From a plasmid: DNA of 64,000 bases. The position numbers and the translations under genes were made by a program. The stretch lies in the sequence record NZ_CP119397.1; one strand, written 5' to 3'. Shown one piece after another: positions 12,237 to 50,723 of this stretch (position 1 is the first letter of the stretch; each line of letters starts with the position of its first letter). The notes under the pieces are model-generated. The model did no database searches and had not been told where the DNA came from. It saw only the letters and a program-made list of their open reading frames with translations.

Positions 12237-13625
12237 ATGCAAATGTCCTCCGATACCCACGCATTTTCTGTTAACCCCGCCAACGGTGAAAAGATTGCCG
12301 CCTATCCGTTTGTGACGGCTGACCAGATCGATCAGGCCGTTGAGAATAACTACCGCGCTTACCAGCAATGGCGCGCCCTGCCGCTGGCGGCGCGGGCGCA
12401 AAAGCTGCGCGATCTGGCCGTCTCACTGCGTGCCCATGCGGAACCGCTGGCGCTGATGATAACGCTGGAGATGGGCAAGCCGGTGAACCAGGCGCGCGCC
12501 GAGGTGGAGAAGTCCGCCGCACTGTGTGACTGGTATGCCGAGCATGGCCCGGCGATGCTGGCAACGGAACCGACCCTGGTGGAAAACCAGAACGCGGTGA
12601 TTGAATACCGCCCGCTTGGCCCGCTGCTGGCGGTGATGCCGTGGAACTTCCCGCTCTGGCAGGTGCTGCGCGGCGCGGTGCCGAGCCTGCTGGCAGGCAA
12701 CAGCTATGTACTGAAACATGCGCCGAATGTGCTCGGCAGCGCGCAACTGATTGAGAACATTTTCCTGCATGCCGGGTTCCCGGCCCATCTGTTTACCCAA
12801 CTGAACGCCACCAATGAAGGCGTGAGCCAAATCATCAACCATCCGCGCATTGCAGCGGTGATGGTGACCGGCAGCGGCCGGGCCGGCAGCGCCATTGCCG
12901 CCCAGGCGGGTGCCGCGCTGAAAAAATGCGTGCTGGAGCTTGGCGGTTCCGATCCGTTTATCGTCCTGAACGATGCCGATCTGGATGAGGCCGTGAAAGC
13001 CGCCGTCGCCGGGCGTTACCAGAACAGCGGTCAGGTGTGTGCGGCGGCCAAGCGCTTTATCGTGGAAGCCGGGATCGCCGCGCGCTTTACGGAGAAATTT
13101 GTTGCGGCAGTACGTGCCATCAAAATGGGCGACCCGCGCGAGGCTGAGCACTATGTCGGGCCGATGGCGCGTTATGACCTGCGTGACGAGCTGCATCAAC
13201 AGGTTCAGGACTCCCTGGCACAGGGCGCGACGTTGCTGCTCGGCGGTGACAAGCTGGCCGGCGCAGGCAACTACTACCTGCCGACGGTGCTGGGCAACGT
13301 GACCCCGGAGATGACCGCATTCCGTCAGGAGCTGTTCGGCCCGGTGGCCGCCATCAGCGTGGCGCAGGATGCCGACCACGCGCTGGCGCTGGCGAATGAC
13401 AGCGAGTTCGGCCTGATGGCGACGATTTACACCGCCGATGCGCAGCGCGCAGAACAGATGGCAGCCGCGCTGGAGTGCGGCGGCGTGTTCATCAACGGCT
13501 ACAGCGCCAGTGACCCGCGCGTGGCGTTCGGCGGCGTGAAGAAAAGCGGCTTTGGCCGGGAGCTTTCCCATTTTGGCCTGCATGAGTTCTGCAACATCCA
13601 GACCGTATGGAAAAACCGCCGTTGA
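12237..13625 (+). CDS. sad: NAD(P)-dependent succinate-semialdehyde dehydrogenase (Sad/YneI-type aldehyde dehydrogenase).
   Basis: 462 aa, the same length as E. coli YneI and near-collinear with it (LCDWYAEHGPAML, AVMPWNFPLWQV, KKCVLELGGSDPFIVL, GQVCAAAKRF, HEFCNIQTVWK). Confidence 0.9.
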   Translation: MQMSSDTHAFSVNPANGEKIAAYPFVTADQIDQAVENNYRAYQQWRALPLAARAQKLRDLAVSLRAHAEPLALMITLEMGKPVNQARAEVEKSAALCDWYAEHGPAMLATEPTLVENQNAVIEYRPLGPLLAVMPWNFPLWQVLRGAVPSLLAGNSYVLKHAPNVLGSAQLIENIFLHAGFPAHLFTQLNATNEGVSQIINHPRIAAVMVTGSGRAGSAIAAQAGAALKKCVLELGGSDPFIVLNDADLDEAVKAAVAGRYQNSGQVCAAAKRFIVEAGIAARFTEKFVAAVRAIKMGDPREAEHYVGPMARYDLRDELHQQVQDSLAQGATLLLGGDKLAGAGNYYLPTVLGNVTPEMTAFRQELFGPVAAISVAQDADHALALANDSEFGLMATIYTADAQRAEQMAAALECGGVFINGYSASDPRVAFGGVKKSGFGRELSHFGLHEFCNIQTVWKNRR

Positions 13626-38691: not shown

Positions 38692-38901
38692 CTCCGTAAC
38701 ATTAAATTAAATGACAGCAACAATGATGAAAACAAACCGGCAACGTGCCGCTAACAGTGTAAACGATTACCGCAATCGATAGCGTATCTATAAGAAAAAT
38801 CAGAGTGATCCCCTGTGCAAAGGGCACGAAAAAAGGCAGGGCGAGGGGGAAAACACGAAAGGTGGGCGCGGAAAAGGGCGGTTTCCGCGCAGGGCACGCG
38901 G

Positions 38902-39186
38902 TCAGAGGCCATCCACAATGGTGATCATCGCGTCAGCGACGCCGGCGCGCCTGGCCCGTGCCTGCTGGTACGCCTCTGAGTGGTAACAGGCCAGCGCCGT
39001 GGGGTAATCGTCAAATTCAATCACCACATGTTTGATGAAGGCTGCCCCTTCCAACGTTTCAGCCTGGCCGCCCCGCGCCAAGAAGCGGGCGTTAAACTGG
39101 CGGAATGCGTCGGGGGCCAGCGCCATATAGTGCTGATACTGTACGGGATCATGAACGGTGACGTGGGCAATCCAGTAGGCGGGCAT
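38902..39186 (-). CDS. DUF1330-family protein.
   Basis: 94 aa, MPAYWIAHVTVHDPVQYQHYMALAP... with the characteristic DUF1330 pattern. Confidence 0.7.
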   Translation of the reverse strand: MPAYWIAHVTVHDPVQYQHYMALAPDAFRQFNARFLARGGQAETLEGAAFIKHVVIEFDDYPTALACYHSEAYQQARARRAGVADAMITIVDGL

Positions 39187-39190
39187 CGGG

Positions 39191-39868
39191 TTACTCCTGC
39201 TCAGTTAAAATGCGTTTCGCCAGTTCAGCGGCTTCCGTGAGGTGGGCCAGCACCTCGTTGCGCGCCAGATCGGCGTCATTTTTATCAATCGCATCATAGA
39301 TGCGTGACATGCGCTCAAAGCCCGCGACACGGCGCTCATGGCTTTTCAGCGTCAGGGCGCGCAGGCGGCTGATGCGGCTGTTAAGCCGCTGCACAATTTC
39401 CCAGGCGATGGTGTGGTTGGCAACCTGGAAAATGGTTTCGTAAAACGCCTGGGAGGCCTCAACCCGCCGGATGTCATCATGCTCGTTGGAGGCCTCGGCG
39501 ATCTGCATCAGTTTCTGGTGCAGCACCTGTTTGTCATGCGGTTGCGCCAGCCGGGCGCAGTCGTGCGCCGCCTCCTGCTCCAGCAGCATCCGGATGGCGT
39601 AAATCTGCTCCGCCACTTGCCAGGTCAGCACCGCCACTATCGGCCCCTTTTTCGGCAGGTTCTCAATCAGCCCTTCGGCTTCCAGGTAGCGGATAACCTC
39701 CCGGACCACGCTGCGGCTGACGCCCAGCTCTTCACTGAGTGTCCGCTCCACCAGCCGGTCACCCGCTTCAAAATACCCGGCGATAATCGCCTGGCGCACT
39801 TTGGTCAGCGCCAGTTCACGCAGGGTTTGCGGGGTATTCTCTATTTTTAATGAATGGTTTGGCAGCAT
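39191..39868 (-). CDS. GntR-family regulator, FadR subfamily (HTH plus FCD effector domain). Divergent candidate regulator of the 40.4-46.9 kb operon.
   Basis: HTH (ERTLSEELGVSRSVVREVIRYLEAEGLI) plus an all-helical FCD domain. Confidence 0.85.
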   Translation of the reverse strand: MLPNHSLKIENTPQTLRELALTKVRQAIIAGYFEAGDRLVERTLSEELGVSRSVVREVIRYLEAEGLIENLPKKGPIVAVLTWQVAEQIYAIRMLLEQEAAHDCARLAQPHDKQVLHQKLMQIAEASNEHDDIRRVEASQAFYETIFQVANHTIAWEIVQRLNSRISRLRALTLKSHERRVAGFERMSRIYDAIDKNDADLARNEVLAHLTEAAELAKRILTEQE

Positions 39869-40323
39869 GGGCTTCTCTTTGATGAGCGGAATTTTTAACG
39901 TATACGTAACAATAAGGGGCGGGCGTCCGCCTCGTCCTGACCGCCTGCCGGTTAACTATTAGCACTGTTTCGCCTGCTTTGGCAATCCTGGTATGCCATA
40001 TGCCATCCGATTAACTGCATGGCGTCTTTACCGGCACCTGACGGGAAACTGCCGGAAATCCGCGTCAGTTCACAAATCTGTTATTTCGCCGGAATGCGCA
40101 AATTATCACCACCCATCCAGCCCGGCCATGTAAAATATCCAGCTGATAAATATCGACAATTATTTTACACCCTGCCTTTTTTTTCACCTTTTTCTTCCTG
40201 CACCCGTCAGCCCGGTAAACCGGTATTTCTGAAACAGCGTTGGCGGGTTAAACCCGCCTGCTGCCGGGGTTTGCCTGCTGTAGATGCCGCCCTTTTCAGA
40301 AAATTTTAAGTATTCCGTATGAT

Positions 40324-40370
40324 GGTATACCAACTTTTGACATACAACGAAGCCCGGTGCTATACCTCGT
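40324..40370 (+). promoter_or_regulatory. Candidate GntR operator (perfect palindrome TGGTATACCA, 40324-40333) abutting a sigma-70 promoter (TTGACA 40337-40342, 18 nt, TATACC) for the downstream operon.
   Basis: A GT-N-TA-N-AC type palindrome typical of GntR-family operators sits ~85 bp upstream of the first gene. Confidence 0.45.
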
Positions 40371-40418
40371 CTCACGCCACATAGAGTTAACATTTCATTT
40401 ACTTTTGGAGGTTGTTCC

Positions 40419-41021
40419 ATGCATCCGAATATCCGTAAGACACTGGTTTCCACTGAGACGATCTATTCCGACGGCGGCAAGGCAGCCGGCCAGCCGCTGG
40501 TGATGATCGCGGCCGCAGCCGTGGTGAAAAACCCGTGGGCCGGGCAAGGCTTCGTTGAAGATCTGGCGCCAAAAATCCGCGAGATGGCCCCGGTGCTGGG
40601 CGAGCTGCTGACGGCGTTGATCATCAAAGAGGCCGGGTCGGGCGAGCAGGTTCAGGCGTTCGGCAAAAGTGCCGTGGTGGGGCTGGACGGCGAACTGGAA
40701 CACGCCTCCGCGCTTATCCACACCCTGCACTTCGGCAACCATTACCGCTCGGCAGTCGAGGGGAAAAGTTACCTGGCGTTCAACAACACCCGCGGCCCGG
40801 CCAACTCCCCGATCCTGATCCCGATGATGGGCAAAAACGACGAGGGCAGCCGCGAACACTACCTGACGTTCCAGTTCAACATCAATGATGCCCCTTTCAG
40901 TGACGAAATCGTCATTGCGCTGGGCGCTGCGCTGGGCGGCAGGCCACACCACCGTATCGGCAACCGTTACCTTGACCTGAAAGAGTTAGGCCATGATCCG
41001 AAAAACCCAGCAGCTGTCTGA
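40419..41021 (+). CDS. Amino-acid-synthesis family protein (PF06684, AA_synth / DUF1185-like). Function unknown.
   Basis: 200-aa protein of the AA_synth pattern. It is the first gene of a tightly coupled operon. Confidence 0.65.
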   Translation: MHPNIRKTLVSTETIYSDGGKAAGQPLVMIAAAAVVKNPWAGQGFVEDLAPKIREMAPVLGELLTALIIKEAGSGEQVQAFGKSAVVGLDGELEHASALIHTLHFGNHYRSAVEGKSYLAFNNTRGPANSPILIPMMGKNDEGSREHYLTFQFNINDAPFSDEIVIALGAALGGRPHHRIGNRYLDLKELGHDPKNPAAV

Positions 41022-41838
41022 GATAAACCTCCGGGTCAGCTATCTGGAAGCGGGCCAGGGCGCGCCGCTGGTGCTGATCCACGGGGTCGGGATGAACGCG
41101 GAATCCTGGTATCCGCAGATGGCAGCGCTGAGCCGCCACTTCCGGGTGCTGGCGGTGGACATGCCGGGGCATGGTGAAAGCGAGGGCTTCCGCCACCCCG
41201 CCGCCCTGAACGAGTACGTCGCGTGGCTGGCCGCGTTCCTGCGTACCCAGCCGGAGGCGCGTTTTGCCGTGGCGGGTCACTCGATGGGCGCGCTGATCAC
41301 TGCCGGGCTGGCGATCGACTGCCCGGCGCTGGTGAGCCACGCGGTAGTGATGAGCGGGGTGTTCCGCCGCAGTGACGCGGCCCGCGCCGCCGTCGTGCAG
41401 CGCGCCGCTGAACTCGCCGCCGGGCAGGGAGAGATCGACTCGCCGCTGGCGCGCTGGTTCAGTGACGCACCCGGCGAACAACCACTGCGCCGCCAGGTGG
41501 GCGACTGGCTGCACCGGGTTGACCGGCAAGGCTACGCCTGCGCCTATCAGGCGTTTGCCGGGGGCGACCAGCTCTACGCCGACCGCTGGCAGGCGATCCA
41601 GTGCCCGGTACTGGTGCTGACCGGCGAACAGGATGCCAACTCCAGCCCGGCAATGGCCCGGCAGATGGCCCAGGCCGCCCCCCACGGGCGGGCGGTGATT
41701 ATTGAAAACGCCCGGCACATGGTCACCCTGACAGACGCAGAGCGGGTCAACGCGGAACTTCTGGCGTTTCTCCGCCCTGCCCCTGCACCGGTTGCCCGGC
41801 AGACCACACGAGAAGGAGTGACAGATGGACGCAGATAA
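40993..41838 (+). CDS. Alpha/beta-fold hydrolase.
   Basis: HGVGMN oxyanion region and a GHSMGA nucleophile elbow. It overlaps the upstream gene by 29 nt and the downstream gene by 14 nt. Confidence 0.8.
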   Translation: MIRKTQQLSEINLRVSYLEAGQGAPLVLIHGVGMNAESWYPQMAALSRHFRVLAVDMPGHGESEGFRHPAALNEYVAWLAAFLRTQPEARFAVAGHSMGALITAGLAIDCPALVSHAVVMSGVFRRSDAARAAVVQRAAELAAGQGEIDSPLARWFSDAPGEQPLRRQVGDWLHRVDRQGYACAYQAFAGGDQLYADRWQAIQCPVLVLTGEQDANSSPAMARQMAQAAPHGRAVIIENARHMVTLTDAERVNAELLAFLRPAPAPVARQTTREGVTDGRR

Positions 41839-42754
41839 ACGCAGACAATTACGTGACGCTTTCGGCGCTTTTATGACCGGCGTCACCGTCGTGACCACCA
41901 CGGGTGATCACGGCCAACCGCTTGGCTTTACCGCCAATTCCTTCTCCTCGGTGTCGCTGGAGCCGCCGTTGCTGCTGGTCAGCATTGACAAGCGTTCGGC
42001 CAATTTTGCCCAGTTTACCGGCTGCGGCCACTTCGCCATCAATGTGCTCGCCGAGCAGCAGAAAGAGACCTCAAACATTTTTGCGCAGAAAATTGAGGAT
42101 CGCTTCGCGCTGATTGACTGGCACCCGGCTGCCTCCGGTGCGCCGCTGATTGACGGCAGCTCCGCCTGGTTTGACTGCCGCCTGCATCAGGTGGTGGATG
42201 CCGGTGACCACGCCATTTTGATCGGGGAAGTCGGGGCGTTCGGCTCCAGCGGCACCGCCGGGCTGGGTTACTACCGCGGTGCCTATTTCACCCCGTTCCA
42301 TAATGCCGAATCCCTGATCACCAACCCGGAAGTGGTGGTCAGCGCGCTGATTGAATCCAACGGCCGGGCGGTGATGGTCAGACAGCAGGATGGCGGCTAC
42401 GCCCTGCCCGCCCGCACCGTCGGCGGCCAGGGCGTCAGTGACACCCTGGCCGCACTGACCCGCGATCTGTCTCTGAACGCCAGCCCCGGCTTTGTCTATT
42501 CGATTTACGACGAGCGCCCCAAAAACCGCCAGCACATCGTGTTCCTGTGCGCCCTGCCGACCGATGCCGCAGAGGCACAGCCGCCGCTGCACCAGGCCGA
42601 GTGGTATCCCCTGAGCAATCTGGCCGGTTTGCCGATTGCCGACTCCGCCCTGAAATCGCTGATGAACCGTTTTGTCAGGGAACATGCGGTGGGTAATTAC
42701 GCCATCTATTACGGCGATGAACAACGCGGCAGCCTTAAACATTTCGCCGGCTGA
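41825..42754 (+). CDS. Flavin reductase (HpaC/RutF-like, PF01613) fused to a ~150-aa C-terminal domain of unclear function. The C-terminal domain may be a NUDIX-like fold with a degenerate Nudix box.
   Basis: N-terminal flavin-reductase motifs (FMTGVTVVTT...GFTANSFSSVSLEPPLLLVSI..GDHAILIGEV). The C-terminal half has no canonical GX5EX7REUXEEXGU box. Confidence 0.7.
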   Translation: MDADKRRQLRDAFGAFMTGVTVVTTTGDHGQPLGFTANSFSSVSLEPPLLLVSIDKRSANFAQFTGCGHFAINVLAEQQKETSNIFAQKIEDRFALIDWHPAASGAPLIDGSSAWFDCRLHQVVDAGDHAILIGEVGAFGSSGTAGLGYYRGAYFTPFHNAESLITNPEVVVSALIESNGRAVMVRQQDGGYALPARTVGGQGVSDTLAALTRDLSLNASPGFVYSIYDERPKNRQHIVFLCALPTDAAEAQPPLHQAEWYPLSNLAGLPIADSALKSLMNRFVREHAVGNYAIYYGDEQRGSLKHFAG

Positions 42755-42773
42755 ACGCCGTGAGGACGCAACC

Positions 42774-43811
42774 ATGAAACTCTCTTTATTCGTTCATATG
42801 GAAAGAATTTCCCCCGATGAGCCGCAGGAAACGCTCTACAACGAGATGATGACGCTGTGTGAAATCGCGGATCGCGGCGGTATGCACGCTATCTGGACGG
42901 GTGAGCACCACGGCATGAATTTCACCATCGCCCCCAACCCGTTTATCAACCTGGTGGACATCGCCCACCGGACATCCAGGGTTCGCCTGGGCACCGGCAC
43001 CGTGGTCGCCCCGTTCAACCACCCGATCCGGCTGGCCGGGGAAGCGGCGATGACTGACCTTATCACCGGCGGGCGGCTGGAGCTGGGCATCGCACGCGGT
43101 GCGTACAGCTTCGAATATGAACGCCTGATGCCGGGGCTGACGGCCTGGGAGGCGGGCCAGCGGATGCGTGAGCTGATCCCGGCGGTGCAGAAGCTGTGGC
43201 AGGGCGATTACGCCCACCAGGGGGAGTTCTGGTCATTCCCGTCGACCACGTCCGCGCCGCAACCGGCCAAAGACGCCGCACCGCCGATCTGGGTGGCAGC
43301 GCGTGACCCGAACAGCCATGAGTTTGCCGTGAAAAATAACTGCAACGTACAGGTGACGCCGCTGCATCAGGGCGAGGAGGAGATTGTCCGGCTGGTGACC
43401 TGCTTCAAAGAGGCCTGCCGGGCATTCCCACCGCCTGCCCCGCTGAAAATCATGCTGCTGCAACATGGCTATGTGGCGGAGGATGAGGCCGACGCGCAGC
43501 AGGCCGCCACCGCATTTAACCGCTTCTACAACTATTTCGGTGCCTGGTTCAAGAATGAGCGCCCGGTCACGCAGGGGCTGATCCAGCCGCTGACCGACGA
43601 GGAGATTGCGGCCAACCGTTACTACTCCGCCGAGGCCATGCGCACCAACCTCGCCATCGGCACCGCCAATGACCTGATCGCCCGCCTGAAACATTATGAG
43701 GCGCTGGGCTATGACGAGTTCGCGTTGTGGATCGACAGCGGGATGCCGTTTGCCCGCAAAAAAGCGTCACTGGAGCGTTTTATTCACGGCGTGCTGCCCG
43801 AATTTCACTGA
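42774..43811 (+). CDS. LLM-class (luciferase-like) flavin-dependent monooxygenase.
   Basis: 346-aa TIM-barrel LLM pattern (MKLSLFVHME...HHGMNFTIAPNP...). Start at the internal ATG after an SD. Confidence 0.85.
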   Translation: MKLSLFVHMERISPDEPQETLYNEMMTLCEIADRGGMHAIWTGEHHGMNFTIAPNPFINLVDIAHRTSRVRLGTGTVVAPFNHPIRLAGEAAMTDLITGGRLELGIARGAYSFEYERLMPGLTAWEAGQRMRELIPAVQKLWQGDYAHQGEFWSFPSTTSAPQPAKDAAPPIWVAARDPNSHEFAVKNNCNVQVTPLHQGEEEIVRLVTCFKEACRAFPPPAPLKIMLLQHGYVAEDEADAQQAATAFNRFYNYFGAWFKNERPVTQGLIQPLTDEEIAANRYYSAEAMRTNLAIGTANDLIARLKHYEALGYDEFALWIDSGMPFARKKASLERFIHGVLPEFH

Positions 43812-43820
43812 GGAACCCTG

Positions 43821-45287
43821 ATGGAATCGTTCAAACTCTATATCGACGGCCGCTTTGAGGCGGGCAGCGCCTGTTTCACCTCGCTGAACCCGGCCACGGA
43901 GCAGCCCTGGGCGGAGATTGCCGAAGCGCAGGCAGAGGACGTCAACCGGGCGGTGGCCGCCGCGCACCGCGCTTTCCATGACGAACGCTGGCGCGGCCTC
44001 ACCGCCGGTGCGCGCGGCAAATTGCTGCTGCGGCTGGCGGATCTGCTGGAGCAGAACGCCGGGGAACTGGCGCGGCTGGAGACGCTCGACACCGGCAAAA
44101 TCATCCGGGAAACCCGCGCCCAGGTAGCGTATGTCGCGGAGTATTACCGCTATTACGCCGGGCTGGCGGACAAGATGGAGGGCCGCACCCTCAGCATCGA
44201 CAAACCGGACATGGAAACCTGGGTCACGCGTGAACCCGTGGGCGTGGTCGCGGCGATCATCCCCTGGAACAGCCAGCTGTTTTTATCGGCCGTGAAAATC
44301 GGCCCGGCGATCGCCGCCGGCTGCACGCTGGTGGTCAAGGCCGCGGAAACCGCCCCGGCCCCGCTGCTGGCGTTTGCGCGCCTGATCGACGAAGCCGGGT
44401 TCCCGCCCGGCGTCTGTAACATCATTACCGGCTTCGCCGCGACGTGCGGCACGGTGCTGACCACCCACCCGCTGGTGGACCACATCGCCTTTACCGGCGG
44501 CCCGGAAACGGCAAAAAGCATCATCCGCAACAGTGCGGAAAACCTGGCGCGCACCTCGCTGGAGCTGGGCGGCAAATCACCGTTTATCGTGTTTGAGGAT
44601 GCTGACCTGGAGAGCGCCGCCAATGCGCAGGTCGCGGCGATCTTCTCCGCCTCGGGCCAGAGCTGCGTGGCCGGCTCCCGGCTGCTGGTGGCAGAAAGCA
44701 TCAAAGACGCGTTTCTCGAGGCGCTGACGCAGAAGGTGCGCGGCATTGTGATTGGCTGCCCGCAGCAGCCGGAAACCCAGTTCGGCCCGCTCTGCACCCC
44801 CCAGCAAAAAACGCGCATCCACCAGCGGGTCACGCAGTCACTGGAACAGGGCGCGCGGCTGGTCACCGGCCATTACGACCTGGATCGCCCCGGTTATTAC
44901 TACCCGCCAACCATCCTCGACTGCTCAGCCCAGCCGCAGGCCGTGTGCGTGACGGAGGAACTGTTCGGCCCGGTACTCTCGGTGCTGACCTTCCGTGATG
45001 AGGCCGAAGCGGTGCGCCTGGCGAATGACACCGGGTATGGGCTGGCGGCCGGGGTGTTTACCCAGAACCTGACCCGCGCCCACCGCGTGACGCGCCGTCT
45101 GCGCACCGGCGTGGTGTGGCTCAACACCTACCGGGCGGTCTCCCCGCTGGCCCCCTTTGGCGGCTACGGCAAATCGGGCTTTGGCCGTGAAGGCGGCATG
45201 GACGCGGCGCTGGAGTACACCACCACCAAAACCGTCTGGTTACGCACCAGTGATGCGCCGATAGATGACCCGTTTGTGATGCGCTGA
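43821..45287 (+). CDS. NAD(P)-dependent aldehyde dehydrogenase.
   Basis: Catalytic Cys (GQSCVAGSRLLV) and Glu (LELGGKSP) motifs. 488 aa. Confidence 0.9.
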   Translation: MESFKLYIDGRFEAGSACFTSLNPATEQPWAEIAEAQAEDVNRAVAAAHRAFHDERWRGLTAGARGKLLLRLADLLEQNAGELARLETLDTGKIIRETRAQVAYVAEYYRYYAGLADKMEGRTLSIDKPDMETWVTREPVGVVAAIIPWNSQLFLSAVKIGPAIAAGCTLVVKAAETAPAPLLAFARLIDEAGFPPGVCNIITGFAATCGTVLTTHPLVDHIAFTGGPETAKSIIRNSAENLARTSLELGGKSPFIVFEDADLESAANAQVAAIFSASGQSCVAGSRLLVAESIKDAFLEALTQKVRGIVIGCPQQPETQFGPLCTPQQKTRIHQRVTQSLEQGARLVTGHYDLDRPGYYYPPTILDCSAQPQAVCVTEELFGPVLSVLTFRDEAEAVRLANDTGYGLAAGVFTQNLTRAHRVTRRLRTGVVWLNTYRAVSPLAPFGGYGKSGFGREGGMDAALEYTTTKTVWLRTSDAPIDDPFVMR

Positions 45288-45480
45288 CCCAGTGCGCAGG
45301 GCGGCGCGCCCCCGCCGCCCGCGTTATGCGTTTCAGGACGACACCGCCCGCCTGTTTCTGACGTCATCACCTGTTAAGGCAACCCTCGCCGGTTGTCAGG
45401 ATGGCTGTGGGCTTTTTTCAGGGAATACCGCCTTACACCCGCTGTTTACACGCTGAAATCCTGATTTCCCGGAGGTTAGA

Positions 45481-46878
45481 ATGAGTGCCCAGCCCGACCA
45501 GAAACGGTTAATTGAAAACAAGTCTGTTGATTACGTCCCGGCGTCAGAGCGCCACGGCCGCTCACGCAGCCTCTTTACGCTCTGGTTCTGCACCAACATT
45601 GCACCGCTGGCGGTGGTCACCGGGGCGATGGCCAGCCAGACGTTCCACCTCAGCATTGCCTCGGCGCTGACGGCGATTATCGCCGGGCACCTGTTCGGCG
45701 GGATTTTCCTGGCCCTGACGTCGGCACAGGGGCCGCAGGTGGGCATTCCGCAAATGGTACAGAGCCGGGCGCAGTTCGGCCGTTACGGTTCGCTGCTGGT
45801 GATTATCTTCGCCACCGTGATTTACCTCGGCTTCTTTATCTCCAATATCTCCCTGTCCGGGCGGGTGATTAACAATGTCATCCCGGCGTTGCCGCTCCCG
45901 GCCGCCACGCTCACCGGGGCAGTGGTCGCGACGCTGATTGGCGTGGTGGGGTACCACTTTATCCACCATATCAACAAGGTAGGTGCCTGGGTGATGGGCG
46001 CGGCGCTGCTGGGCGGGCTTTTGCTGATGCTGACCCAACCGCTGCCGGCCGATTTCTGGCAGCGCGGCAGCGTCACCCCCGGCGGCTGGTTTGCCACCTT
46101 CTGCATCGGCGCGGTGTGGCAAATCAGCTTTTCGCCCTACACCTCTGACTATTCACGCTACCTGCCGGCCAGCGCCGGCATTGCGCGGCCGTTCCTCTGC
46201 ACCTATCTGGGGGCGTGCTGCGGCACTATCCTGGCGTTTGTGTTCGGGCTGGTGGCGGTTAACCTGGTGCCCGGCAGCGATGCAATGGCCTCCGTCCGGC
46301 AGGCGACCGGCTGGCTCGGGCCGATGCTGATGGGGCTGTTTTTGGTCAACATCATCTGCCATAACTCCATGAACCTGTATGGCGCGGTACTCTCGCTGAT
46401 TACCGCCGTCCAGACGTTCCGCCCGCACTGGACGCCGGATGCGCGTGTCCGGGTGCTGTTCTCCGCGCTGGTGCTGGCAGGCTCGGTGCTGACGGCCCTG
46501 GCGGCTTCCGCGCACTTTGTCACCTTCTTCCTGAACCTGATCCTGGCGTTGATCGCCGTGCTTATCCCGTGGAGCGTGATTAACCTGATCGATTTCTACC
46601 TGATCAATAAACAGCGCTATGACATCCCCTCGATTTTCAGCGCGGACGGCGGGCGTTACGGGCGGGTCAACACCCGCGCCTTGCTGGTCTATTTCGGTGG
46701 GATTGTGGTGCAGGTGCCGTTTGTGGAGAACGCCTTTTTCACCGGCCCCTATGCCAACCTGATCCCAGGGGTGGATATCTCCTGGATTATCAGCCTGGTG
46801 GTGACCAGCATCGCCTACCCGCTGTTCCACAGCCGCCATGATGTGCGGGTGCCCAGCGGCCGGGCAAGCAAAGCCTGA
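45481..46878 (+). CDS. NCS1-family (purine-cytosine / allantoin-type) permease.
   Basis: 465 aa, 12 TM segments, NCS1 N-terminal pattern (YVPASERHGRSRSLFTLWFCTNIAPLAV). Confidence 0.85.
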   Translation: MSAQPDQKRLIENKSVDYVPASERHGRSRSLFTLWFCTNIAPLAVVTGAMASQTFHLSIASALTAIIAGHLFGGIFLALTSAQGPQVGIPQMVQSRAQFGRYGSLLVIIFATVIYLGFFISNISLSGRVINNVIPALPLPAATLTGAVVATLIGVVGYHFIHHINKVGAWVMGAALLGGLLLMLTQPLPADFWQRGSVTPGGWFATFCIGAVWQISFSPYTSDYSRYLPASAGIARPFLCTYLGACCGTILAFVFGLVAVNLVPGSDAMASVRQATGWLGPMLMGLFLVNIICHNSMNLYGAVLSLITAVQTFRPHWTPDARVRVLFSALVLAGSVLTALAASAHFVTFFLNLILALIAVLIPWSVINLIDFYLINKQRYDIPSIFSADGGRYGRVNTRALLVYFGGIVVQVPFVENAFFTGPYANLIPGVDISWIISLVVTSIAYPLFHSRHDVRVPSGRASKA

Positions 46879-47061
46879 GAGCCGCCCCGCCCGGCTTTCC
46901 GCCCCGGCCATGCCCCTGCCCTTTGGCGGGGCTTTTTTCAGCCCGCCGGCTTCTTTTTCCCGCTGGCTAAAGTTTCGGCAAAAACCCACCGATAACTTAC
47001 CAGCAGGACGTTTATGTACAGGATGTCGCCTATGTGATAGCGCAACGCCGGGAGTGCCATA

Positions 47062-49014
47062 ATGGCCGGAAAAGTACGACAGAAACACCCCATGAGTACC
47101 CGCACACAGATGCTGCTCACGGGCGCGTTAACCATCACCCTTGGGTTTGTGGTCACCATTGGTGTGCTGAGCTGGCAGTCAGGCCGCGAGCAAAAATTGC
47201 TGGCCGGGCAGTACCTGCAACAGATCGCCCAGTCCAGCGCCCTGCAAATCCAGCAGGAGCTGAGCTATGCCAGGGATGTGGCGCACAACCTGGGCCAGAG
47301 CCTGATCGCCCTGCCCGCCGCCGGGATAAAAGAGCGCGCCGCCGCCGATAAGCTGACGGAATACGCCCTGCGGGATAACCCTGATTACCTGTCGATGTCC
47401 GTGATTTTCGAACAGGATGCCTTCGACGGGCGCGACGCCGAGTTCGCCGCCCTGCCCGGCCAGGCACCGAACGGCCGCTACGCCTGGTTTGTCGACAAAA
47501 ACCAGGCGGGCCAGTACGCGATGCACCCGCTGCTCTCCTATGCCACGCCCGGCCAGGGCGACTACTATCTGGTGCCGCAAAAGAGCCGCAAAGATACCCT
47601 CACCGAACCCTACACCTACGCCTATAACGGTGTGCCGACGCTGCTGACTTCCGTTTCGTCGCCGATCGTCAGTGACGGCAAACTCTGGGCGGTGGTCGCC
47701 TCCGACATCTCGCTGGCGTCGTTGCAGAAAAAAGTCGATCAGATAAAACCCTGGGAAGGCAGCGGCTACGCCATGCTGCTTTCGCATGGCGGCAAAGTGG
47801 TCTCCCACCCGGATAAAACGTTAGCGGGTAAAGTCTGGCCCGGCCGGGCCGATAACTTCACCGCGGACATCGTGCAACAACATGACGCGCGGCTGGACGA
47901 AGAGGTGATGGTGACCTGGCAACCGGTCACCATCGGCAACAGCGACCAGCCGTGGTACCTCGGCGTGGTGGTGCCGGTCAGCCAGGTGATGGCGGCCGCC
48001 AACCGGCAGTTAACCAATGCCGTGATCCTGATGGTGGTGAGCATCCTGCTGGTGAGCGCGCTGCTTGGGGTAATTTTCAGCCGCAAAGTGCTGCGGCCGA
48101 TCGGCGGCGAGCCGTTGCAGGCTGCCACCATTGCGCTGGCGGTTGCGGAAGGCAAGCTGGATAACGTCATCCCGGTCAGTGCCGGTGACCGCAGCAGCCT
48201 GTTTTTTGCCCTGCACACCATGCAGGCGCAGTTGCGCGGTATTGTCGGCCAGCTGAAAGAGGCCAGCGACTCGGTGCGCCAGGGCGCAGGCGAGATTGCC
48301 GGCGGCAACCTGGATCTCGCCTCCCGCACGGAACAGCAGGCCGCCGCGCTGGAGGAGACCGCCGCCAGCATGGAGCAGATCACTGCCACCGTGAAACATA
48401 ACGCCGCGAACACGCACCAGGCCACGGTATTGACGGAGAACGCCACCCGCATCGCCGGGCGCGGCGAGCTGCTGGTGAACCAGGTGGTGGAGACGATGAC
48501 GCAGATTGATGACAGCGCCCGGAAAATCGGCGACATCACGGCGATCATCAACAGCATCGCGTTCCAGACCAATATCCTGGCGCTGAACGCTGCGGTGGAG
48601 GCCGCACGGGCCGGAGAACAGGGGCGCGGCTTCGCCGTGGTGGCCTCTGAAGTGCGCAACCTGGCGCAACGCAGCGCCACCGCCGCCACCGAGATCGCCG
48701 CGCTGATTGAAGAGTCCGGCCGCCGCGTCGGCAGCGGGGTGCAACTGGTGCACGATACCGGCAACACCATGCAGGAGATGACCCAGGCCGTCACGTCCAT
48801 GCAGAGCATTATCAACGAGATCGCTACCGCCTCGGACGAACAGGCCAAGGGCATCAGCCAGGTGACGCTGGCGGTCAACGAGATGGACGGCACCACCCAG
48901 CAAAACGCCGCCCTGGTGCAGGAGATGTCTGCCGCAGCCAGCTCGCTGGAGGCGCAGGCGCAACAGCTCGCCCAGACAGTAGAGCAGTTCCGGTTGTCGG
49001 CCCAGCCTGCGTAA
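47062..49014 (+). CDS. Methyl-accepting chemotaxis protein with a periplasmic dCache/Cache-like sensor. The start may be the internal Met at 47092.
   Basis: Two TM segments flank a ~270-aa periplasmic domain. HAMP domain and a conserved MCP signalling domain ([40 protein letters not shown]). Confidence 0.85.
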
Positions 49015-49184: not shown

Positions 49185-50723
49185 ATGTTGGCCCTATTCC
49201 GTAACCGGTCCCCTGAACGCATCATGCGCGCGTGTTTGATGATTATCAGCGCGGCGGTGCTGTTCACCGGCACCTGGTCGCTCTGGCACTCCTGGCACGG
49301 CACCGTGCAGGATGCCGAGAAGGACGCGAAAAACCAGTCGCTGTCGCTCTCGCGGCAGGCGCAGGATACCTTTTTACAGGTGGAACTCACCCTGGAGGAG
49401 CTGGCGCGCAACGCAGACGCGATGTTTGCCGCGCCGTCCCATTTTGCCGGGCCGGGCGGGCTGCTGGCCATGCAGAAGAGCAAACTGCCGCAACTGAATG
49501 GGCTGTTCGTCTATGACGCGCAGGGGCGCTGGGTCACCACGACCGCGAAACACGTGCCGCCGCGGGCCAATAATGCTGACCGGGAATATTTTATCTGGCA
49601 CCGTGAGCATAACGACGCGCTGATCCACGTCGGGCATGTGATCCGCAGCCGCTCCAGCGGGGAGCTGATCATCCCGGTATCCCTGCGCCTGAATGATGCG
49701 CAGGGGGCGTTCCGCGGCGTGGTGCTGGGCACGGTGAGGGTCGATTTTTTCCGCCACTTTTATGGCTGGTATGAGCAGGGGCCGAACGATCTGCTCGGGC
49801 TGCTGCACGCTGACGGCACCATCCTTTATATGCGCCCCTTCCCGGACAGCGTGATTAACCGCAGCCTGGCGCACAGCCCGCTGTTTACCCGCCTGCTGAA
49901 AAGTGCGCTCACCGGCACCCGCACCTGGAAAAACCGGGTGGACGGCGTAACGCGCCTGACGGGCTATGCCCGGCTGGAGCGCTACCCACTGGTGGCGGTG
50001 GCCGGTTATGACCGTAATGCCTTACAGCGCACCTGGTTCAGCAATAATGCGGTGATCATCATCCTGAACGGCCTGCTGCTGTTGCTGGTGATCGTGCTGG
50101 GCCTGCTGGGGTTGAGGCAGTTCAACACCACCTTGCGTAAACAGCGTGAGCTGCTGGAAGTGCGTGACGAGCTGACGCGGGTCAACCATACCTTGCAGGA
50201 TCTGGCGCTGGTGGACGGCCTGACCGGCATCGGCAACCGCCGCCAGTTCGATTTTTATCTGGAGCAGTGTCTGCTGCGTGCGAAAGGGTCCGGGTTGCCG
50301 GTGTCGCTGGTGATGCTGGACATCGACTTTTTCAAAAACTACAACGATGCCTTTGGCCATGTTGCCGGTGACGAATGCCTGAGGCAGGTCGCGGAGATCC
50401 TCGACCACCTGCCGCGCCGCGGTGCCGACCGGGTAACCCGCTACGGCGGCGAAGAGTTCGCGCTGATCCTGCCGGGCACCGGCGCCGATGAAGCCAGACA
50501 GGTGGCGAAACGCGCACTGGCGGCCCTGCGCCGGGCGGCCCTGCCGCACAGCGCCAGCCCGTTGCCGGAAAAAATCGTCACCCTGAGCGGCGGCGTCAGC
50601 ACCGCCCACCCCGGCGGCAGCGCCGATGAGCTGAAACGGGCAGCCGATGCCGCGCTCTATCAGGCCAAACGCGCCGGCCGTAACCGGATTATGGGTGCCG
50701 GGGTGGTGAAGGAGGGGGAATGA
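49185..50723 (+). CDS. Diguanylate cyclase (GGDEF) with a periplasmic sensor domain and an intact I-site.
   Basis: Two TM segments flank a periplasmic domain. RYGGEEF active site with RGAD (RxxD) five residues upstream. Confidence 0.85.
   Translation: MLALFRNRSPERIMRACLMIISAAVLFTGTWSLWHSWHGTVQDAEKDAKNQSLSLSRQAQDTFLQVELTLEELARNADAMFAAPSHFAGPGGLLAMQKSKLPQLNGLFVYDAQGRWVTTTAKHVPPRANNADREYFIWHREHNDALIHVGHVIRSRSSGELIIPVSLRLNDAQGAFRGVVLGTVRVDFFRHFYGWYEQGPNDLLGLLHADGTILYMRPFPDSVINRSLAHSPLFTRLLKSALTGTRTWKNRVDGVTRLTGYARLERYPLVAVAGYDRNALQRTWFSNNAVIIILNGLLLLLVIVLGLLGLRQFNTTLRKQRELLEVRDELTRVNHTLQDLALVDGLTGIGNRRQFDFYLEQCLLRAKGSGLPVSLVMLDIDFFKNYNDAFGHVAGDECLRQVAEILDHLPRRGADRVTRYGGEEFALILPGTGADEARQVAKRALAALRRAALPHSASPLPEKIVTLSGGVSTAHPGGSADELKRAADAALYQAKRAGRNRIMGAGVVKEGE

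Follow-up and report, generated by a model that had tools for sequence, protein, structure and literature searches.

The gene cluster at positions 38902-46941 of the DNA analysed here, a stretch of 64,000 nucleotides (the window; NZ_CP119397.1) from a plasmid of about 250 kb of Chimaeribacter arupi (Yersiniaceae), raises the question of which compound its products degrade. A first-pass annotation had read the divergent GntR-type regulator and the six genes facing away from it as an undescribed system for the ring opening of an N-heterocycle or an amide. Our comparisons gave a different answer. With a probability that we put at about 0.88, the cluster is a trigonelline (N-methylnicotinate) catabolic locus, orthologous to tgnR and tgnFDABCP of Acinetobacter baylyi ADP1. 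Trigonelline is a compound of plants and algae and is plentiful in legumes, coffee, and algae. Its degradation pathway, with the enzymes and metabolites, was reportedly worked out in A. baylyi ADP1 by Perchat et al. in 2018, where the cluster is said to have been described as widespread. The locus is an inducible catabolic operon in which a two-component luciferase-like monooxygenase (LLM) and flavin reductase are joined by an aldehyde dehydrogenase (ALDH), a hydrolase, a permease of the NCS1 family, and a repressor of the GntR family. The kind of system, an operon for oxidative ring opening of an N-heterocycle, had thus been recognized correctly, but it is not an uncharacterised one: seven of its proteins are reciprocal best matches of ADP1 tgn proteins and are encoded in the same order. 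The gene cluster represents an already-known pathway and is ordinary save for a few small unexplained accessory parts.

The assignment is carried by the comparison with A. baylyi. The locus of strain DSM 14961 (L010) was used as the reference; its proteins are sequence-identical to the ADP1 entries CAG69304-CAG69311, a set that includes 62977.ACIAD2543 and Q6F9F3_ACIAD. Seven genes of this locus have the same order and orientation as those of the window (R, and then F-D-A-B-C-P). Across the ADP1 cluster (TgnA-F, TgnP, and TgnR; the ACIAD2539-2547 region) the gene families agree as well, and the reciprocal best matches lie at 48-75% identity. The DUF1185 protein TgnF, whose gene is the first of the operon and overlaps tgnD in both organisms, is 74.5% identical to ADP1 Q6F9F3. 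TgnC shows 69.1% identity over 488 of 488 amino acids to CAG69307, named (Z)-2-((N-methylformamido)methylene)-5-hydroxybutyrolactone (MFMB) dehydrogenase, and only 34% to TgnE. The LLM is 67.7% identical over 344 amino acids (511 bits, reciprocal) to ADP1 TgnB (ACIAD2543), the NCS1 permease is 60.6% identical to CAG69306, and the regulator, found in the same position and orientation, is 55.7% identical to its L010 counterpart. TgnA matches the 310-aa ADP1 protein at 49.2% over residues 1-306, and TgnD matches CAG69310, named (E)-2-((N-methylformamido)methylene)succinate (MFMS) hydrolase, at 48.5% over 264 amino acids, in a full-length match. When the A. baylyi proteins were searched against the 64-kb window, the same genes were recovered as the best matches. 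Further ADP1 proteins are named in NCBI and UniProt as the reductase component and the oxygenase component of flavin-dependent trigonelline monooxygenase and as succinate semialdehyde dehydrogenase. ADP1 TgnB is UniProt Q6F9F6 (PMC11354265), and the substrate of the ADP1 tgn system is trigonelline according to Perchat et al. (2018; PMID 29686076), as cited in PMC7913881, PMC8269262, and PMC13236597.

The same arrangement recurs widely. We fetched 85 loci from gamma-, beta-, and alphaproteobacteria, 80 of them, including L010, from one genome scan. The gamma- and betaproteobacterial loci come from Acinetobacter, Burkholderia/Paraburkholderia/Caballeronia, Xanthomonas, Luteimonas, Lampropedia, and Serratia, and the alphaproteobacterial loci from many Rhodobacterales and Rhizobiales, including plasmid pSymA of Sinorhizobium meliloti. 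The F-D-A-B-C core is colinear in 76 of the 85 loci, across all three classes. The NCS1 permease is encoded in 42, every one of them from the gamma- or betaproteobacteria, and 71 loci have a GntR gene. Gene order together with a divergent GntR/FCD gene is the same in the window, A. baylyi, A. baumannii, and Serratia. The LLM family is tight, with about 70% identity across the three classes in the homology search; a homolog 70% identical to the window LLM carries the JGI name 'flavin-dependent trigonelline monooxygenase, oxygenase component'. The best LLM match of TgnB in the PDB scores only 101 bits.

Some database records of these loci call for care. The 3.97-Mb A. baumannii "plasmid" NZ_CP064203.1 (PLSDB) is evidently a chromosome. 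The plasmid records of A. baumannii and pSymA are without usable annotation, and for these ORF lists and tblastn were used. The TgnB encoded by CP060162.1 (PLSDB), a 343-kb plasmid assigned to 'Acinetobacter venetianus', scores 80.9% identity and 574 bits against the window protein, the same as the Pantoea plasmid copies, which suggests that the record is mislabelled or a contaminant. Protein clusters at 90% identity mix TgnB with TgnA and TgnF with TgnD, apparently because some source records join genes that are adjacent or overlap; this artefact could mislead automated naming.

At the level of the genes, most of the first-pass annotation stood (Table 1). The list of open reading frames (ORFs) contains the GntR/FCD regulator and the six plus-strand genes as described, and the Pfam checks run on the seven proteins confirmed every family call, well over the gathering scores. 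The 29-nt and 14-nt overlaps and the subsequent 19-nt and 9-nt gaps are correct. The description of the six genes as overlapping or near-abutting holds for the first four junctions but fails at the ALDH-NCS1 junction, where the gap is 193 nt. The 550-bp intergenic region and the palindrome TGGTATACCA are both there. All eight ORFs of the locus, including that of a DUF1330 protein, are intact and of full length, and the motifs GHSMG, ELGGKSP, and GQSCVAG are kept. For tgnB, the ORF list offers an upstream TTG at 42672 besides the ATG at 42774; the ATG is preferred because homology to TgnB supports it.

Table 1. Genes of the locus, named by orthology with their predicted functions, and predicted control elements (positions in the window)
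Feature	Position	Strand	Remarks
DUF1330 gene	38902-39186	-	94 aa; PF07045, Pfam E 1.6e-32
tgnR, GntR-family FCD-type (FadR-like) regulator	39191-39868	-	Pfam GntR 2.5e-14, FCD 3.1e-19; divergent from the catabolic genes
Second operator-like site TGGTATGCCA (one mismatch)	39989-39998		121 nt upstream of the tgnR start
Alternative candidate promoter TTCAGA-17-TATGAT	40295-40323	+	Consensus scan; abuts O1
Predicted TgnR operator O1, perfect palindrome TGGTATACCA	40323-40332		4 nt upstream of the -35 hexamer
Candidate tgnF promoter TTGACA-18-TATACC	40337-40366	+	-35 at 40337-40342, -10 at 40361-40366
tgnF, DUF1185/AA_synth (PF06684) helper protein	40419-41021	+	Pfam 2.7e-64; PDB 2qtp, 3byq
tgnD, alpha/beta hydrolase, predicted MFMS hydrolase	40993-41838	+	Pfam Abhydrolase; GHSMG nucleophile motif
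tgnA, predicted reductase component of trigonelline monooxygenase	41825-42754	+	309 aa; Flavin_Reduct covers residues 14-155 only
tgnB, luciferase-like FMN-dependent oxygenase component, predicted ring opening	42774-43811	+	Pfam Bac_luciferase; TgnB homology
tgnC, ALDH-family predicted MFMB dehydrogenase	43821-45287	+	Pfam Aldedh; TgnC orthology
tgnP, NCS1 permease, presumed trigonelline importer	45481-46878	+	Pfam Transp_cyt_pur; same position as the ADP1 permease
Intrinsic-terminator-like hairpin and T-run, which would end the operon	46914-46941	+	CCCTGCCCTTTGGCGGGG then CTTTTTTCAG

The cluster had looked unassigned because none of the NCBIfam equivalog models attains its cutoff for any of the seven window proteins. 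The GenBank names of the Chimaeribacter proteins are generic, and this is because specific naming reaches the Acinetobacter proteins only, not for want of a characterised relative; the NCBI Acinetobacter proteins matched with an A. baumannii LLM query are named as the oxygenase and reductase components of trigonelline monooxygenase.

Orthology allows a pathway to be proposed for the window. Trigonelline would be imported by TgnP, and TgnA would reduce flavin with NADH. With the reduced flavin and O2, TgnB would then cleave the pyridinium ring directly, without prior hydroxylation, to give MFMB; the opening of the ring by TgnA/TgnB, a flavin-dependent pair of oxygenase proteins, has been described as the first step of trigonelline degradation (PMC8269262, PMC13236597). 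TgnC would oxidise MFMB to MFMS, and TgnD would hydrolyse MFMS to succinate semialdehyde, methylamine, formate, and CO2. Finally, a succinate-semialdehyde dehydrogenase encoded outside the window would oxidise the succinate semialdehyde, with TgnF assisting. The first-pass annotation credited the AA_synth family with no assigned function, which is outdated: for TgnF of ADP1, a DUF1185 protein, stimulation of TgnE, the succinate-semialdehyde dehydrogenase of trigonelline degradation, has been reported (PMC7913881). TgnF is the best-conserved protein of the locus (median identity 71%). This conservation holds whether or not tgnE is linked, which suggests, as a speculation, that TgnF may do more than assist TgnE.

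Several points weigh against the assignment to trigonelline. The pathway chemistry was taken from the names curated for the proteins of ADP1 and from citing papers and is carried over to the window by orthology, and within Enterobacterales the tgn assignment is drawn from the genes, the 'TG operon' already noted in Serratia marcescens SMTT being a genomic report (PMC11829121). Identity to the ADP1 counterparts is only about 48-49% for TgnD and TgnA, and the TgnB proteins of Enterobacterales form the most divergent clade sampled, at 67-72% identity to all others, while those of Acinetobacter, Burkholderia, and the alphaproteobacteria share 74-85% mutual identity. No tgnE orthologue was found in the 64-kb window, where the best matches were other ALDHs at 32-34% identity, and the last step must therefore come from elsewhere. 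Linkage of tgnE is variable, however: only 36 of 82 loci have the gene close to the cluster, and it is missing there from most Burkholderia, many Rhodobacterales, and Serratia. Its absence from the window therefore leaves tgn membership standing, and the role of TgnE could plausibly be taken over by a succinate-semialdehyde dehydrogenase of the housekeeping kind. Every structural feature of tgn membership that we tested was found in the window, except for tgnE linkage, which varies within the family. The window also contains a second ALDH gene (12267-13610), whose product is 32% identical to TgnC and to TgnE and which is not a tgnE orthologue.

The main residual uncertainty concerns Enterobacterales, where the divergence of the clade gives a low probability to a change of substrate. 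In such a case the tgn architecture and chemistry would be retained, and the enzymes of Enterobacterales would act on another N-alkylpyridinium compound or a related betaine, such as a different pyridine carboxylate that is methylated. Besides the position of TgnB and the identities below 50% of TgnD and TgnA, the expansion of the intergenic and leader region to 482-550 bp, compared with a median of 134 bp, could be taken in its favour. Nevertheless, the locus has kept all eight genes in their order and the operator in its exact form. LLM identity in plasmids, as measured by tblastn, falls from at least 57% within the family straight to about 42% or less for the nearest paralogous LLMs, a gap by which the TgnB orthologous group is cleanly delimited. 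Furthermore, A. baylyi and S. meliloti pSymA are comparably divergent from each other, and both are tied to trigonelline; trigonelline as the only source of carbon selects for pSymA, on which the catabolic genes reside (bioRxiv 10.1101/296483). The obvious isomer, homarine, is handled by the differently composed hom operon (PMC13236597). We consequently regard a shifted substrate as unlikely.

Still less probable is an incomplete or decaying plasmid remnant that no longer supports growth on trigonelline for want of tgnE, the porin, and the methylamine-handling genes. The window lacks TgnE, porin, and sox-like genes, which flank the cluster in Acinetobacter; yet the eight ORFs are intact, with their motifs, 49 of the 85 loci are also without tgnE, and Serratia chromosomes share the layout without tgnE. 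An undescribed Rut-analogous ring-opening pathway for an unknown N-heterocycle or amide, with a new activity of the AA_synth protein, can hardly be entertained. The lack of an equivalog model at cutoff and the generic GenBank names speak for it, but each gene of the block has its best-hit orthologue in the characterised tgn cluster, whose substrate is assigned, and the claim of novelty is thereby refuted.

The control region of the locus holds a conserved element as well. TgnR has the GntR winged helix-turn-helix domain at the N-terminus and the FCD domain at the C-terminus, and the palindrome TGGTATACCA is of the T.GT...AC.A type, as for the FadR/FCD subfamily. The exact sequence occurs only once in the 64 kb. 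Upstream of tgnF, it is exact in 66 of 82 loci and present with at most one mismatch in 79 of 82, in alpha-, beta-, and gammaproteobacteria, at a median position of -45 from the tgnF start (-96 in the window). On account of this strong phylogenetic footprint, the palindrome is probably the TgnR operator, and the operator proposal of the first-pass annotation gains support. TgnR would bind TGGTATACCA next to the tgnF promoter and keep the operon repressed in the absence of an effector; trigonelline itself or an intermediate of its degradation could play that part. The 64 kb hold only one other match with at most one mismatch, the site TGGTATGCCA, and it is found in this intergenic region too. 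It may be an autoregulatory site, but is kept as a weak candidate only, because it is not conserved in Serratia. It runs into a short direct repeat, TATGCCA TATGCCA (39989-40005).

The promoter had been called a good sigma-70 promoter. Its -35 hexamer, TTGACA, is indeed perfect, whereas the -10 hexamer, TATACC, is weak and was not called by the consensus scan; conservation in Serratia nevertheless supports the promoter, where the alignment shows that both hexamers and their spacing are kept while the spacer sequence has diverged. The -10 hexamer sits within a two-mismatch operator-like sequence, TGCTATACCT, so that TgnR may bracket the promoter. The tgnR-tgnF intergenic region spans 550 bp in the window (39869-40418), 482 bp in Serratia (L083 6167-6648), and a median of 134 bp elsewhere. 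The main blocks conserved between the window and Serratia are the island CCGTAT-ATGGTATACCAA--TTTGACAT, TATACC 18 nt downstream, and the leader with the ribosome-binding region; conservation is much weaker outside the operator-promoter island and the leader. A 96-aa ORF in the intergenic region (40019-40309) looks spurious.

On the plus strand, no terminator was predicted from 40419 to the start of tgnP, including the 193-nt gap, whereas two weak terminator-like sites fall within tgnP itself (45680-45702) and a clearer one stands behind it (46914-46931). It is plausible that the six genes are all co-transcribed, up to the predicted terminator behind tgnP. An Rfam scan of 38800-47100 returned nothing but a sub-threshold Hrs1 match on the terminator, and neither the 550-bp nor the 193-nt gap showed signs of a riboswitch. 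The terminator is followed by a gene for a dCache-type methyl-accepting chemotaxis protein (47062-49014, plus strand) and then by a long ORF (49185-50723, plus strand) that, judging by its sequence, may encode a GGDEF-type diguanylate cyclase. The chemoreceptor was considered as a part of the system and rejected: it is not found beside tgn in Serratia, and its signalling domain alone matches two Burkholderiaceae loci (L019 and L027). The gene is probably unrelated to trigonelline.

Two parts of the locus have no place in the pathway proposed above. One is the C-terminal domain of TgnA, about 150 residues long (42290-42754), for which no Pfam match was found; the NF045919 match on TgnA likewise spans residues 7-156 only. 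A profile built from 50 orthologues of this domain matches a consistent series of NUDIX hydrolases in the PDB, the best being 3cng at 6.8e-6. In the alignment of the domain (TgnA residues about 158-309), P37, Y67, R124, E128, and Y137 are invariant. The acidic residues (glutamates) of the Nudix box are not conserved in the consensus, and for this reason we read the domain as non-catalytic: it is probably a degenerate Nudix-like, ligand-binding module. PDB 3RH7, a 'hypothetical oxidoreductase', matches the window TgnA over its full length (E 1e-77) and is 100% identical to the TgnA orthologue of S. meliloti pSymA (L002 8048-8986), so that a structure of the two-domain TgnA already exists, without a functional label. 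The C1 reductase of p-hydroxyphenylacetate hydroxylase from A. baumannii (PDB 5zc2) is, like TgnA, a two-domain protein of about 310 amino acids, with a homologous N-terminal domain (E 4.5e-34), whereas the C-terminal domains are unrelated in sequence, that of TgnA resembling Nudix proteins. The C-terminal domain of C1 is MarR-like, and substrate binding there activates the reductase. The Nudix-like domain might sense the substrate and gate the consumption of NADH by TgnA.

The other part is the DUF1330 gene, which begins 4 nt past the tgnR stop codon on the same strand, just outside the region covered by the first-pass annotation. Of the 85 tgn loci, 66 encode a DUF1330 homolog, and in 60 its gene is the neighbour of the GntR gene and has the same orientation, in three proteobacterial classes; in Burkholderia, the DUF1330 and regulator genes are in swapped order. 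The window protein is 59.6% identical to its A. baylyi counterpart (L010 5550-5831) and matches PDB 2fiu (E 2e-21). The gene belongs to the conserved tgn locus as an accessory gene and is probably co-transcribed with tgnR. We know of no function assigned to the DUF1330 genes of tgn loci, and the protein is said not to have been among the six used for reconstitution of the pathway in vitro. It might make or remove the true TgnR effector, or handle a reactive intermediate. That the tgn locus holds unassigned parts that matter, with the DUF1330 protein or the Nudix-like domain as a missing functional component, seems to us possible but rather doubtful.

With the assignment, the generic names 'LLM class oxidoreductase', 'amino acid synthesis family protein', and 'carnitine dehydratase', as used in Chimaeribacter, Serratia, Pantoea, and Salmonella, can give way to specific tgn functions, and it suggests that these Enterobacterales of plants and the gut can feed on trigonelline. 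The well-supported predicted TgnR operator, ATGGTATACCAT, could serve in a trigonelline biosensor. As a discovery the locus carries little weight, because the pathway, enzymes, and metabolites are already known from ADP1; what still invites curiosity is the DUF1330 partner, the Nudix-like TgnA domain crystallised as PDB 3RH7, and the real role of TgnF.

Among known systems, the Rut pathway of E. coli (RutA-G and RutR) had been named as the model of the enzyme logic, and this likeness is real: both systems have an LLM-class oxygenase with a separate flavin reductase that opens an N-heterocycle, an alpha/beta hydrolase, and a permease. The permease and the regulator are nevertheless from different families, and the view that the cluster is not a Rut orthologue was upheld. 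Scores with the NCBIfam models were far under the cutoffs (103 bits against 254.75 for RutF and 66.1 against 238.5 for RutD), RutA was not among the best 25 of 29 LLM matches, and the cluster is without RutB (isochorismatase-type), RutC (RidA-type), and RutE. The homarine operon homABCDER, which catabolises the 2-carboxy isomer of trigonelline and for which a ring-opening oxygenase pair and an ALDH have been proposed (PMC13236597), was set apart by its published description, as the gene sizes and families differ from those of the window. HomA is encoded by about 700 nt (about 230 aa) and binds FAD, HomB is encoded by about 1700 nt (about 570 aa), HomC is a peptidase, the carrier is of the BCCT type, and the products are N-methylglutamate and glutamate (PMC13236597).

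Within the tgn family, the locus in the trc region of S. meliloti pSymA (L002) shares the F-D-A-B-C core with the window at 45-69% identity and has a one-mismatch operator at -42. Unlike the window, it has no NCS1 permease, carries other ORFs and a tgnE-like gene after tgnC, and has the GntR gene co-oriented with the operon. The ADP1 cluster differs from the plasmid-borne locus of the window in having tgnE, a porin-like gene, and upstream sox-like genes, as well as in the tgnR-tgnF spacing, which is about 146 bp in A. baylyi and 550 bp in the window, with the operator at -51 and -96, respectively, from the tgnF start. In A. baylyi and its close relatives, the porin-like gene lies between tgnP and tgnE (L010 13321-14484), and tgn is flanked by sarcosine-oxidase-like genes of the soxB, soxA, and soxG types (L010 243-5412), which might handle methylamine or another N-methyl product. 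Shared by ADP1 and the window are the two-domain TgnA, the tgnF/tgnD overlap, the palindrome upstream of tgnF, and the DUF1330 gene beside tgnR. The closest relatives of the window are the Serratia loci (L083-L085), with 85% identity in the LLM and 77% in the DUF1330 protein. Instead of a 250-kb plasmid, large contigs of 0.2-1.3 Mb carry them, and their flanks differ, with no chemoreceptor gene downstream; in common with the window they have the DUF1330-tgnR pair, the long intergenic region, the conserved operator-promoter island, and the tgnE-less layout.

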